From a virus (Duplodnaviria; Caudoviricetes), in the IMG/VR virus record IMGVR_UViG_3300028591_000073, positions 192,001 through 256,000 of that record: a DNA stretch of 64,000 nt. One strand, given 5' to 3'. The notes under the pieces were generated by a model. The model ran no database searches. It had not been told where the DNA came from and worked only from the letters and a program-made list of their open reading frames with translations. Made by a program: the position numbers and the translations under genes. The number at the start of each line of letters is the position of its first letter. The first letter of the stretch is position 1. This document shows, in pieces, positions 2,287-55,627 of the stretch.

Positions 2287-3174
2287 ATGCTGAAAAATGT
2301 CAGATTCGCTGAAGTTAAACTTAAGGACATTGAAAGTGGTGTTCCATTCAAAGTATACCATTGTCGTGTCGGGAAAGATTATGATATCTTTACAGAAAAG
2401 ATGGGGGTGTTTGAAGGGGTACCAATGAAGATTCAACTGACCATCAATTACACCAAGACATCTTATCATTCAGATGAAGAAGCTAAGATGGAGACGCATT
2501 TTCTCATTCGAGATTTTTATGCCGTATTCAGTATCGGGGAAGAGGAAATAGAAATGAGATGGGATATGGATGATTTCTTATCAGTCCAAGCTCGAAATAA
2601 AATACTCATGAACAGTATATATGGGATATCTGGAATACAGAGTGTGTTATCTGCGAAACATTTGTTGCCACCACAAAGAAGAAATGGTCCGTTGACATTT
2701 GATGGAGAACTTACAATGAACAATATCATGTATTCTTTTTGGAAAATTGCAACTCTCATGCATTTATCACTGATTGGAGACTGCTCTTGGCTTTACAGCA
2801 TTTCAAACCCTGCAGGAATCTTCGCTGCTATTCATTCAGCATTTACAATCTTTCCGATTGCAAAGAAGTGTTATATGAGTATTGTTAAATCTAATGAGAG
2901 AATTGCAATAAATCAATTAACACAAGTCATTGAATATTGTCAAACGAATGATTCATTTAATAACAGACCCATTGAAGCAGTCGTTGCACCAATGGTGAGT
3001 GCTATCCATGAATGTGGTAAACCAGAATTATTCCGAAACATTCCCATGGAAGTTCGAACAATACTGGTACCGCATTTCAATAAAGGAAACCAGCATGAGA
3101 TTGTTTCCGAACTCAATCATTATACAGATGGACGGTATCATGATTTAAATGACATGTCCATGTGGGAACTTTAA
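2287..3174 (+). CDS. paralogous family protein 1 (conserved C-terminal module ending WEL)
   Basis: RBS TAGGAGG; C-terminus ELFRNIPMEVRT...HEIVSELNHY...MWEL shared with neighbours. Confidence 0.8.
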   Translation: MLKNVRFAEVKLKDIESGVPFKVYHCRVGKDYDIFTEKMGVFEGVPMKIQLTINYTKTSYHSDEEAKMETHFLIRDFYAVFSIGEEEIEMRWDMDDFLSVQARNKILMNSIYGISGIQSVLSAKHLLPPQRRNGPLTFDGELTMNNIMYSFWKIATLMHLSLIGDCSWLYSISNPAGIFAAIHSAFTIFPIAKKCYMSIVKSNERIAINQLTQVIEYCQTNDSFNNRPIEAVVAPMVSAIHECGKPELFRNIPMEVRTILVPHFNKGNQHEIVSELNHYTDGRYHDLNDMSMWEL

Positions 3175-3191
3175 TCAAGGAGGAAATTGTT

Positions 3192-4058
3192 ATGAAAATT
3201 ATCAGTGATATGAAAGTGAAAGACTTTCCGTCAGGAGTGTCTTTTAAGGCATACTATCAAGAACCAAGACTGACACATCAGGGTGGTTTGTTATTCGATG
3301 AACCATATACCGGCTCATTGGAACGTAATTCGGTTCCGAAACTGGATGCATCATATGGAACTTGGTTTCCAGTAAGGACAAAAGAGACCTATCATTATCG
3401 TGCGGATGATGTGATGGAATGTGACATCACCATCACGTACCATGAAATTGATGATGACTTGGAAAACCAGCATAAATTGGATGATGATGCAGAAATAGTG
3501 ATTGATAAAATCGATGTCTCGATGATGAGACATGGTATAAAAATCACAAATCATTATTATGGGACGCATGATGATAATGAAGTGTTTAGTCGCCATAGTA
3601 GGATAATCGATTGGTTCTCTTCGAAGGTTAAACTTCAATATTTTCCTTTGATCAGTGTAATTGGTAAATGTTATCATATACTGTGTGGTGAGTTCACAGA
3701 ACTTGTATACACTGAACCAGCATTGAATCAATTGTGTGACTGCGAAATGATTATTAGAGGTATTGCATCATCGGAATCAACACCTTGGTTGGCAGAGACA
3801 CTTCTCAGTCGTTATTGTGAACTAACTGAGAAAAGAAACGATATATCACAAGTGGCATTCTCCCAGACGACATTGTTCATGCTTATATATGAACTCGTGA
3901 ATCAAAACCGGGGAGAGGTATTACGTATAATACCATTGACTCTGAGAACACATCTGATTGCAAGGTTTAATGAAGCTGGGAAACATGCAATTGTCGCAGC
4001 GTTAAACCATTACCACAAAGGGGATTACAGAAATCCCGGAAAGGATTTGGTATTATGA
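3192..4058 (+). CDS. paralogous family protein 2
   Basis: RBS AAGGAGG; C-terminus LRIIPLTLRT...AGKHAIVAALNHYHKGDY. Confidence 0.8.
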   Translation: MKIISDMKVKDFPSGVSFKAYYQEPRLTHQGGLLFDEPYTGSLERNSVPKLDASYGTWFPVRTKETYHYRADDVMECDITITYHEIDDDLENQHKLDDDAEIVIDKIDVSMMRHGIKITNHYYGTHDDNEVFSRHSRIIDWFSSKVKLQYFPLISVIGKCYHILCGEFTELVYTEPALNQLCDCEMIIRGIASSESTPWLAETLLSRYCELTEKRNDISQVAFSQTTLFMLIYELVNQNRGEVLRIIPLTLRTHLIARFNEAGKHAIVAALNHYHKGDYRNPGKDLVL

Positions 4059-51443: not shown

Positions 51444-53834
51444 GTGATGAGAATGCCAGAAGTCAATCAAGATTTATTGATCGGATTGGTCAATGATGTA
51501 TTGGGTAAAGATGAAATCGAAGCTCGTAAAGATGAAATCGAAGATACCATTACTGGAATATTGAAATCTTATAATTTGTCAACAGATTTGTCATTTGTGG
51601 AAAAGATGGCAAAATTGAAGTTCCATACAAACAAGGGAGAAGAAGTTGATATTGAAGAACTTCCGTCAGAATTGAAAGATGCTGCATTCTTACCGGTAAA
51701 TACAATTGCGGATATTGCATTACGTCAAGATCTGGATATGATCATATCACAACTGCCAGAATGGTATAACGCCATTCAAGTTACCAGAGATGCAGTATGT
51801 GAAGCAGATACCGTTGATGGTAAATTATCACGTGTGATTCAATTTGATCGTGTGGCATTAAATGATCAACAGAAAGCTTCTAATATTGCAAAAATAGAAG
51901 AAGTAGAAGATCGAATGGAATTAAATCATATTATCAAAAATCATATTGTGTTTAACACATTGCTGTATGGGGAGTCCTATGTATACACAATTCCGTATGC
52001 AAAAGTATTCTCTGACTTATATCAATTCCGTTTAAATGATGAAAATAAACGTAAATCATCATCCGTATCTAACATGTTTGAAATATCATCTACCATGAAA
52101 GGATATGGATATGGAGAACAAACCATTGAGGTTTCTTTGAGTGATACCATCATCCAGGAATCCAACAAGTATAAAAATAAGAACAATACTGTCTTCACAG
52201 AACAAGAAATCATGGATATCAATCCTATGTATCATGGTCATACATTTCATGAAGATGGAACAGAGGATAAGAAATCACAAAAGGAATATGATGAACAATA
52301 TGAAGCACAATTAAAAGAAATTGCAGATAATATTTCTTATATTGAACAAGATATTGCATTACCTGTGATTGAACAATCTGCTCATGATTTAAAAGCGGTG
52401 TATGAAGCAAAATATCGTGAAACAAAGAATGACACCGATGTGAAAGCATTCTTTGAAGAAGTGGTAGAAGATGGGATGAAATCAGAACCAACCACATTTG
52501 ACAAACATTTTTCCCGTATCAAAGGATGTTACATTCGTATCTTACCAGCAACGAAATTGATTCCAATTCGTATTGATAGAACTGTGATCGGATATTACTA
52601 TGTGTCTGACCAGACTCGTACGGAAAAGAGTGGTGAAAGACGTAATTCTGGATTGAGTGGTTATACATTAAGAACACCATCGATTGGCTATGATACATTC
52701 TCTCCGGACCAGATGTTCTGTGAGAAATTGGCAACTAAAATCATCAATAACTTTGATTTGAAATTCATGCGTGATAATACGGCATTACATGAACAAATCG
52801 TTGCGATTCTGCAATCTCACAAATTTAATGAAGCGATGTTACGTTTCATTTATATTCCAGCAGAACATGTTTCACAGTTTACCATTAACAAAGATGGTAT
52901 GGGATGTGGACATTCCATGATGGAACCTGGATTGATTGCGGCAAGAATGTACATGTTCTTGAAACTGTACACTGTGCTGTATCAGATTAACAATTCACAG
53001 ATTCGTGTTTATAATTTGAGAATGAGTGGTATCGATAAGAATTATCGTCAATTAGTACAAGAAACCATTCGTAAGTTTGCCGCTCGTAGAATCACAGCCA
53101 ATGATATTTTCAATTATCGTTCTTCCATGACAAAGGTAAGTGGTGGTTCAGAATTGATTATGCCAATGGGTGCATCGGGTGAAGCACCAATCCAAGTATC
53201 ATCTATCGATGCTGCAGACTCACCCATTTCATCCGACTTAATGGAACAATTGAAAGCAGAAGCTATTAACTCCACTCCAGTACCAGCTTTGTTATTGACA
53301 AATGGTGCTGTATCGGAGATTGAATTTGCAAAGGAAACAGAATTGGCAAATACCAAATTCAATTCTTTTGTCTCAGGTGTTAAGATTGAATTGAATCATG
53401 ATACTACAAAATTCTATCGTAAGATACTGAAATGGGAAACTGATATTGAACCAGAGTTATTAAAAGATATGACATTCTCCTTCCATATGTCAACATCCAA
53501 AACATTGAATGTGACATCGGAAAAGATTTCCACATTTGATGCTGTATGGCAACTTGTCATGAAAACCTTTTTAACAAAGGAAGAAAGACAAGAAGGAGAT
53601 GGAGAAGAAGGAGACACACCAGTTGCACGTGCTTTAAAGAAGAAAATGATTCAAAAGTATCTTCCAGAAATTGATGTGGAAGACTTTGAGAATATGGCAA
53701 AAGAAGCACGTGATGAAGCAAACCAGAATAAATTAAACGAAGTGGATCCAAATAAGAATCTCTTGGATAGTTCTGTTCCCGATGCAGGAGATGCCGGCGG
53801 TGGAGTAGATGATATGAATGGAGGTATGTTCTAA
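51444..53834 (+). CDS. portal protein (jumbo-phage type)
   Basis: 796 aa; TLLYGESYV, LIPIRI...IGYYY, INSTPVP...EFAK segments; acidic Gly-rich tail. Confidence 0.7.
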   Translation: MMRMPEVNQDLLIGLVNDVLGKDEIEARKDEIEDTITGILKSYNLSTDLSFVEKMAKLKFHTNKGEEVDIEELPSELKDAAFLPVNTIADIALRQDLDMIISQLPEWYNAIQVTRDAVCEADTVDGKLSRVIQFDRVALNDQQKASNIAKIEEVEDRMELNHIIKNHIVFNTLLYGESYVYTIPYAKVFSDLYQFRLNDENKRKSSSVSNMFEISSTMKGYGYGEQTIEVSLSDTIIQESNKYKNKNNTVFTEQEIMDINPMYHGHTFHEDGTEDKKSQKEYDEQYEAQLKEIADNISYIEQDIALPVIEQSAHDLKAVYEAKYRETKNDTDVKAFFEEVVEDGMKSEPTTFDKHFSRIKGCYIRILPATKLIPIRIDRTVIGYYYVSDQTRTEKSGERRNSGLSGYTLRTPSIGYDTFSPDQMFCEKLATKIINNFDLKFMRDNTALHEQIVAILQSHKFNEAMLRFIYIPAEHVSQFTINKDGMGCGHSMMEPGLIAARMYMFLKLYTVLYQINNSQIRVYNLRMSGIDKNYRQLVQETIRKFAARRITANDIFNYRSSMTKVSGGSELIMPMGASGEAPIQVSSIDAADSPISSDLMEQLKAEAINSTPVPALLLTNGAVSEIEFAKETELANTKFNSFVSGVKIELNHDTTKFYRKILKWETDIEPELLKDMTFSFHMSTSKTLNVTSEKISTFDAVWQLVMKTFLTKEERQEGDGEEGDTPVARALKKKMIQKYLPEIDVEDFENMAKEARDEANQNKLNEVDPNKNLLDSSVPDAGDAGGGVDDMNGGMF

Positions 53835-55585
53835 TGGCTAAGGATAACATGATTGTTGAAAAGACAGCAACTGGAGCAATTATCCATCAACCCACTCTGG
53901 AAGTGAAACGTAAAGCATTACAATACTTCTCCCTTCCAGATCCACAACGTGAATATTTCATTTATTCTGGATCAGACATCAATCGTCGACCAATCTTTGG
54001 AAATGAACATGATGTATTATATATTTCATCTGGATTCTTAAAAATCAAAGATCCGGTAATTGATAAATTAAGATTACAAGCGACCAGAGTGGCATCACGT
54101 GATGGTGCTCCTATTCAAATTACAATGAATCGAAAACCTCGTTCTCAATTACAAGTTGACTGTATCCAAATGATGGTAGAAACCGGATATTCCAAAATGA
54201 CATGTGAAGTGAAGCCCGGTGTTGGCTTTCTGGCACCCGTATCGAGTAATCGGTATGTTAAATTACCCTTTGAATTGCTGGGACGCTCTAATGCTCATTG
54301 TACTACAACATGATTCCGAACAGGAATGAGTGTGAATGTGACGAAAGTAAAAAGAAACAATGAGATGGTGTATGGTTAAATCCTAAACATTATTAAGAAT
54401 GAGCAATCAGCAGCGAAGCTCCGAATAGGAGAACGTTCAACGACTATCTCGAAAGAGAGTAGGGAAACCGAAGCGGAGGGCATCCTATGTGAGGATGATG
54501 ATATAGTCTGAAGCGGAAAGACATTCATGGCATTATCCGTTATCAGTCAGCTTGGAAAGAAACCATTGATTATTGCTCCCACGGCATTATTGAAGAATCA
54601 ATGGATTGAGAATTTTACAGATTTGGGTGTTGATGTAAATGATATTGCAACACGTATTTATGATGGACCGAACAAGAAAGTATGTGTTGTCACCATATCA
54701 GCAATTGAAAATGAATTACGTAAAGATTGGCAAGGTCTCATGAATGTATTGAAACAAGCGAACTATGGTATTCGTATTACAGACGAAGCACATCTACATT
54801 TGAAGGGTGTGTTGAAATTTGATGCTATTGCCAATATCAAACGTAATTATTATCTGTCCGCAACACTTGGTAGATCAGATGAACAAGAGGATGATGTTCT
54901 CAATCGAGCATTATTAGATGCAGATCGATTCGTCGGTGATAAACGATATGAGGAATATCAAGATGAATACATCAATGTGTATCTTCAAGATATTTACTAC
55001 AATGCTTCTCGTGAAATATGTGAGGAACATTTTCGATATGGGAAAAAGGGACTAATCAGTGCAACATATTATCGTATGTTAATGGATTATCAACATGGCA
55101 TTCCCTTTTATCGGAATGCATGTCATATGGTGAAAGTTGCAGAGAAATTGAAAGTACAGGGTAAAGTATTATTGTTATTACCATTACTCGATGCAATTGA
55201 TCGTATTAAAGAAGAAATGATGAAAGATCCATACTTCCGTCAATTTAAGATTGCATCTGTCGATGGTAGTATGAAATTATCCGAAAGACAACAAGCGTTT
55301 GATCAAGATATCATCTTAGCAACAACAATGAGTTGTGGCACGGGTGTGGATATTTCTAACTTAGGAGCGGTTGTTAACTTTGATCAAAAGTCTTCTTTGA
55401 TTATCTTAGAGCAGATAGTTGGTCGTTTGCGTAATCGTGGATTCCAAACATTCTATATTGATATTTGTGATCATGTAAAATATGCAAGGGCATTTGAAAA
55501 CTGGGGAATGAAGCGTCGACAATACATGCCTTACTTTCCTGGCACCTCTCCGAAGATGCACATGCTACCAAAGATTATGTGTTAA
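53834..55585 (+). CDS. SF2 (UvsW-like) DEAH helicase; exons 53834-54222 and 54514-55585 (486 aa spliced)
   Basis: Splicing restores Walker A KPGVGKT; IIAPT, DEAH, LSAT, GTGVDI and QIVGRLR motifs. Confidence 0.85.
54223..54513 (+). ncRNA. group I self-splicing intron (IA-like, ORF-less, 291 nt)
   Basis: P AATTGCTGGGA, Q AATCAGCAG, R GTTCAACGACTA, S GATATAGTC; P1 GGTGT/GCACC with U-G at the 5' splice site; P10 CTTTCTG/CGGAAAG; terminal G54513. Confidence 0.9.
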
Positions 55586-55590
55586 TGAAT

Positions 55591-55610
55591 GAGGGCCCAT
55601 ATGGGCCCTC
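55591..55610. terminator. CATATG-centred palindrome terminator
   Basis: GAGGGCCCATATGGGCCCTC + T-rich tail. Confidence 0.7.
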
Positions 55611-55627
55611 TTCTATTATTTCAACTT

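Follow-up and report, generated by a model that had tools for sequence, protein, structure and literature searches.

A group I intron without a P9 domain in the Walker A motif of a rumen jumbo phage helicase gene

Results and Discussion

A helicase gene split by an intron that ends close to P7

The helicase gene of a rumen jumbo phage is split within its Walker A motif by an ORF-less, IA2-like group I intron of 291 nt (54223..54513, plus strand) that has neither P9 nor P9.0. It is a well-supported structural variant whose splicing is predicted from sequence, and the reading that we favor, to which we assign a probability of roughly 70%, is that of a working ORF-less IA2-type phage intron which has lost the whole P9 domain and would splice by the ordinary two steps, with a short tether and P10 replacing P9.0. 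Three further phages carry P9-less introns at the same site, and such a natural, cis-continuous clade under apparent selection would mean that P9 is dispensable in nature. Positions refer to the window, the whole 64,000-nt stretch of DNA that was analyzed, and the exon and intron features described in it lie on its plus strand.

The phage record comprises 294,548 nt and is phiKZ/AR9-like; the genes flanking the helicase have matches among the structural, terminase and RNA polymerase beta families of jumbo phages, and a second group I intron was not found in the 294,548-nt genome. The top-matching sequencing run is a sheep gut metagenome, with many bovine gut runs matching in part. The split gene encodes an SF2 helicase (ResIII/DEAD and Helicase_C domains; PHROG 16) with its closest cultured relatives, at 21-27% identity, in Staphylococcus jumbo phages, AR9/PBS1 and RisingSun-like phages. 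Its 5' exon (53834..54222) stops two bases into the Val codon of KPGV, and its 3' exon (54514..55585), which holds the ResIII/DEAD and Helicase_C domains, completes a protein of 486 aa when spliced. The helicase start overlaps the stop of a portal-like gene upstream (53832-53836), and a terminator-like hairpin (55591-55610) directly follows the helicase stop.

A search for intron-less relatives, which the sequence-only reading had proposed, recovered empty alleles that read KPGVGKTF and fix the junction at KPGV|GKT in Walker A. When all G's from 54509 to 54620 were tried as acceptor, only G54513 restored KPGVGKTF with an in-register P10, which is 7 bp long for G54513 vs. 0-2 bp for every other G in that range. 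Empty alleles and acceptor enumeration thus confirm the junction first proposed, U54222/G54513, and the spliced 486-aa protein aligns with the intron-less alleles without gaps at 83% and 73% identity. A guide made of a 7-bp P10, a G and a 4-bp P1 arose in 13 of 200,000 shuffles, and the P1 U-G pair at the 5' site and the terminal G at the 3' site are found in all 16 alleles described below. The same-frame arrangement of the exons noted earlier does hold for this allele but is a coincidence, as 13 of the 16 introns have lengths that are not multiples of 3.

Secondary structure and class

The intron belongs to group I by its catalytic and splice-site features. The core is present with its P3-P7 pseudoknot, P4, P5, P6, P8 and P/Q/R/S elements, and an Infernal comparison made with RF00028 (Rfam) only gave 70.1 bits, above the cut-off of 50. 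P1 (54218..54237; strands 54218-22/54233-37), invariant in 11 of 11 aligned alleles, places U54222-G54233 at the 5' splice site, and the P10 guide (54226..54232) pairs with exon positions 54514-54520 through 7 bp including one G-U. P2 (54238..54257) has 8 bp, five of them with covariation, and a GNRA loop (GUAA, 54246-49) that probably docks on P8. The 5' strands of P3 (54266..54272), P4 (54276-81, within 54276..54288) and P5 (54285-88, tandem CU:AG) pair with 54474-54480, 54407-12 and 54401-04, respectively. Between the P5 strands lies an extension of ~110 nt (54289..54400) with P5a (54294-301/54357-64; covariation in seven of eight pairs), P5b and two further hairpins, one of two pairs with an invariant GAAA loop (54343-46) and one (54371-75/54382-87) that is 11-nt-receptor-like, by resemblance to the GAAA/11-nt motif; the GAAA loop may dock with it. 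P6 and P6a lie at 54413..54436. The 5' strand of P7 (54440..54446, comprising A54440, the bulged C54441 and 54442-46) pairs with 54504-54509, and its G-binding pair G54442-C54508, beside the bulged base, is invariant while the adjacent pairs covary. Between P7 and P3 stand P7.1 (54447-58) and P7.2 (54462-69), the latter shortened here to two pairs plus GAAA but more extensive elsewhere among the alleles; P8 (54481..54497; 6 bp) lies downstream. Covariation is seen in P3, P5, P6 and P7, and minimum free energy folding, which cannot represent the pseudoknot, gave z = -2.0.

The sequence-only reading had P1, P10, P3, P7.1, P8 and the intron coordinates right, and its helices stand, but it overlooked P2, the two-pair P7.2 and the 110-nt P5 extension. 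Its description of the intron as minimal or streamlined does not fit an element of 291 nt that retains P2, P5a-d, P6a, P7.1, P7.2 and that extension. Its statement that there is no homing endonuclease ORF holds, and extends to all 16 alleles of 291-346 nt.

P7.1 and P7.2, the IA2 hallmark between P7 and P3, are both present, but the extended domain 9 of IA2 (P9.0, P9.1, P9.2) is absent here and present in relatives at other sites, and we therefore class the intron as IA2-like and not IA2. With the IA2 introns of phages and Firmicutes, such as those of T4 td, nrdB and sunY and the IStron ribozymes (PMC4227781), it shares P7.1, P7.2, P/Q/R/S, the U-G site and the terminal G, and like them it is inserted in a conserved catalytic motif. 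IA2 is described with the extended domain 9 of P9.0/P9.1/P9.2 (PMC4227781), whereas the window intron has none of it and no endonuclease ORF. Partial DNA matches, covering at most 79% of the query, were to Bacillus, Enterocloster and Staphylococcus phage introns.

What is left of the P9 region is the linker GAA with the terminal G54513 (54510..54513). A54440-U54509 forms a sixth P7 pair in the standard register (U-A in the sister clade), so the linker, first given as five nucleotides, is in fact three nucleotides long. With three nucleotides between P7 and the terminal G, neither a P9 hairpin nor P9.0 can form. Assembly error as the cause of the loss was rejected, because a separate assembly of the probable source sample is identical to 54432-55619 and P9 is likewise missing from the introns that three other phages have here.

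A graded series of P9 states at one insertion site

Alleles of the helicase site were gathered via short N-terminal helicase fragments, their contigs and pattern scans, which yielded 16 complete ORF-less introns of 291-346 nt, all between bases two and three of the Val codon; the incomplete L207, L218, L225 and L529 were excluded from the set. Four of the 16 (the window, L206, L208 and L007) have no P9, and the remaining twelve have a mini-P9 of 3-4 bp. The linkers of the window, L206 and L208 are exactly 3 nt long and each different in sequence, that of L007 is 13 nt, A-rich and unpaired, and the mini-P9 alleles have tails of 16-17 nt in which the hairpin mostly lacks a strict GNRA loop. In an alignment of 11 alleles, 93.6% of cells pair and compensatory change is seen at 29 of 74 pairs, compared with 34-39% of cells and 0-6 pairs in slid controls; these are not counts of independent events, since the alleles fall into two main clades and relatedness inflates them.

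In a core tree built without the tails and rooted by midpoint, the four P9-less alleles form one clade (98/97) and the twelve mini-P9 alleles its sister clade (96/92), and all 16 group together (95/90), separate from the full-P9 introns, with the two-clade grouping weakened after two long-branch introns were added. We infer from this a stepwise loss from full P9 through mini-P9 to none, loss being the simplest reading. One insertion site with mini and zero P9, together with full-P9 relatives, allows 3' splice-site choice and folding to be compared, and the P9 series bears on ribozyme design for circular RNA.

The mini-P9 clade (L211-L224, L359, L361, L405, L527, L530) has a variant P7, GGCUA/UAGCC, which in L361 and L530 is GGUCA/UGACC. 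The members scanned with RF00028 scored 21-31 bits, below the cut-off, and such introns are therefore missed by standard annotation. The contigs L529 and L530, which carry the phage intron and helicase, are found in genome bins labelled Clostridia and Bacteroidales, where phage DNA may have been mis-binned. A further sequence, L210 (411-800), joins the 5' half of the helicase intron to the full-P9 3' half of another intron and has no helicase exon; it was excluded as probably a chimeric contig, or possibly a product of recombination.

P9 in introns at other sites

A sample of 49 ORF-less introns from other sites, picked by core similarity and not as a census (L112, which is the L007 allele, and L191 were excluded), keeps P9 throughout: 43 have a strict GNRA-capped P9 right after P7, and the other six have a hairpin by inspection. 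The phage that carries L007 also holds an ordinary full-P9 intron, and P9 loss therefore tracks intron lineages and not whole phages. When other GKT or DGD motifs were scanned by pattern for introns with short tails, chance matches were the only result, and a metagenome scan was saturated with such matches. The Goslar record has an HNH ORF and a post-P7 sequence able to form a hairpin.

Outside this sample, L191 (8586 onward, equivalent to L538), from a related jumbo phage, carries an HNH-like ORF within P6a and ends in an unfolded tail of 14 nt; it splits a conserved 500-aa jumbo-phage gene at QV|VEIAYEY with a junction length that matches the homologues, and is probably a second P9-less intron. 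The same phage has a gyrB-like gene whose DADP|DG motif is interrupted by an intron (L533, ~1500-1812); this intron lacks a stable P9, and its tail is 15 nt long. L168 (~2830-3655) has two tandem group I introns before FDGD in an RNA polymerase beta-prime-like gene, the second with a single P9 hairpin that lacks a GNRA loop and with P9.1 and P9.2 absent.

Predicted splicing without P9

Although P9 is depicted within the catalytic domain of group I introns and has been called essential (PMC3873408; PMC11835236), no new mechanism needs to be invoked, since engineered ribozymes already tolerate its loss. An engineered Tetrahymena ribozyme reduced to P1-P8 and half of P9.0 completed both steps, bringing the ends together partly rescued the loss of P9.0 (28.4% vs. 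3.9%), and P9.0 or P10 alone was reported to be sufficient, the two being described as redundant (PMC11417360). Engineered Tetrahymena and Pneumocystis cores that end at P9.0 carry out both steps without a P9 hairpin, as the window intron would, and in them the proximity of the terminal G outweighs the sequence of P9.0 (PMC11417360); unlike the window intron, they are artificial, belong to another subgroup, work at high Mg2+ and mostly keep P9.0 or homology arms.

In the two-step reading that we favor, a guanosine bound in P7 would attack after U54222, and the 5' exon would then attack after G54513. The role of P9.0 in holding the terminal G beside the G site would be taken over by proximity, which should suffice because a tether of 3 nt ties that G to the end of P7, and P10 would fix the register of the 3' exon. 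In A-form geometry three nucleotides should be near the minimum that spans the width of the missing P9.0 pair, and such a minimum would fit the three alleles that share linker length but not sequence. P10 is present in all 16 alleles, at 4-7 bp in both P9 groups, and follows synonymous exon changes; the earlier suggestion that the intron relies on a strong P10 is thus borne out as to its presence but not its strength, which in P9-less alleles falls to 5 bp (L007) and 4 bp (L208) and in mini-P9 alleles reaches 7 bp.

The stability otherwise given by L9-P5 would come from L2 docked on P8 and from the large P5 extension, which carries the GAAA loop and the receptor-like motif, with ribosomes or RNA chaperones perhaps giving generic help. 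The P2 loop tends to track P8, being GUAA or GCAA with CC:GG in the no-P9 group and mostly GUGA with CU:AG in the mini-P9 group, and in all 16 alleles the P5 extension has the GAAA loop, which is invariant, and the receptor-like motif. Full-P9 relatives have the extension too, which makes it a precondition: its presence may have allowed P9 to be lost, but it did not arise as a compensation.

A protein, whether a host or phage RNA chaperone or a helicase, might instead be needed for splicing in vivo at these same sites in place of the L9-P5 contact, a possibility that deserves weight though we think it unlikely. The only published natural P9-less intron that we found was proposed to require accessory factors (PMC3873408), StpA, S12, IF1 and ribosomes aid T4 introns (PMC3984707), and another rumen jumbo phage holds the two further P9-reduced introns L191/L538 and L533. 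However, the core and the peripheral helices are intact and covarying, a full-P9 intron shares a genome with the P9-less L007, and a maturase ORF occurs in none of the 16 alleles. The protein cofactor suggested earlier accordingly finds no support in the L007 phage, with its full-P9 intron, or in an intron without an ORF, and homologues of three related endonucleases were not found in the window phage genome; a generic host chaperone may be involved.

Quite improbable, in our judgment, is a distinct architecture in which the L9-P5 contact has given way to a novel tertiary interaction, or to a phage protein dedicated to this task, at the P5 CU:AG. The tandem CU:AG, which is of receptor type and may be either a relic or a working docking site, is kept in all four P9-less alleles, so that a replacement contact at P5 could be formed, and helicase splicing could then be conditional. 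The P5 tandem gives no independent proof of lost L9 docking: a Fisher test of P5 CC:GG against P9 state was discarded because the register shifts between introns, the alleles cannot count as independent and CU:AG is likewise found alongside a GNGA-looped P9 (L126, L138).

A P9 equivalent built from 3' exon bases, or a real acceptor further downstream, is very hard to reconcile with the data. Four weak pairs can form between 54509-12 and 54525-28, and the Rfam alignment draws a P9 over 54512-54528 from exon bases; the pairs are, however, not retained in L206, L208 or L007, and the P9 drawn by Rfam is a model artefact. With any G downstream, up to 54620, residues of Walker A would be lost or the frame would shift, and P10 reaches at most 2 bp, which speaks strongly against the junction at a later G with room for a P9 that the earlier reading had named as its alternative. 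Since covariance models in this way impose a spurious P9 on the exon bases here, P9-less introns are probably mis-bounded in databases.

Evidence bearing on splicing

Every allele contains in-frame stops, 13 of the 16 introns shift the frame and the 3' exons examined are all open. Among the P9-less alleles the introns differ by 6.5-12% and the four-fold exon sites by 51-60%. This conservation relative to synonymous sites, together with the frame disruption in 13 of 16 alleles, strongly implies splicing; it may reflect either long purifying selection after the loss of P9 or a recent spread of the P9-less allele, both of which would require that splicing works. Neither unspliced product would contain a P-loop, the G-K-T codons lying upstream of the ATG at 54527, and metatranscriptome X23 holds short contigs that match the 3' exon exactly and none that spans the junction. 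We give hardly any credence to a non-splicing relic with a helicase that is dead or produced as two pieces, for which the X23 contigs without a spliced junction and the ATG at 54527 in the 3' part could be cited, given that neither piece has a P-loop, that the intron is much more conserved than synonymous sites, that the P9-less state occurs in four diverged phages with open exons and that the helicase is common to AR9, PBS1 and Staphylococcus jumbo phages.

Natural precedents

Pr.rnl.1 (IB4) of Prasinoderma coloniale mitochondria, which has too few 3' bases for P9 and was called very unusual by its authors (PMC3873408), was the one natural P9-less intron found in the searchable literature, most subscription papers lying outside the search. 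It is trans-spliced and a single case in which a missing third piece was not excluded (PMC3873408), whereas the window intron runs unbroken from P7 to its terminal G, is IA2-like and occurs in four phages, alongside a graded set of relatives at this insertion site. Jug gut jumbo phages have small ORF-less introns in essential genes, with a mean of ~206 nt (vs. 291 nt for the window intron) and RNA support for splicing of 37 of 76 (PMC12880540); P9 is not analyzed in the passages on the Jug introns, and the main text never uses the word 'helicase' (PMC12880540).

Inteins and mobility at the site

Of 25 close IMG/VR helicase loci, nine carry an intein, three the intron and the other 13 are empty, and these states interleave on the host tree. 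The inteins separate Lys from Thr and lie 7 nt downstream of the site that the intron uses. Both elements together occurred in none of the 16 intron alleles and none of the eight assessable intein alleles. LAGLIDADG domains were found in both inteins scanned, and HNH genes adjoin some intron alleles. As far as sequence can tell, the pattern fits an intron that blocks intein homing, or collaborative homing (PMC2814812; PMC3984707), and repeated loss would produce a similar pattern. Endonuclease-bearing inteins 7 nt away thus contest the intron site, and a shielding effect can be tested.

The GK|T inteins comprise 341-359 aa and start with Glu in L005 (1969-3000), Cys in L349 (1924-3000) and Ala in L355 (1978-3000). 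The C-termini that were seen share a common Cys-containing block before the terminal His-Asn, which suggests class 3 inteins. Free-standing HNH_3-type genes lie directly 3' of the intron-bearing helicase in L216 (4822-5913, minus strand) and L212 (4958-6091, a weak match) and are candidates for collaborative homing.
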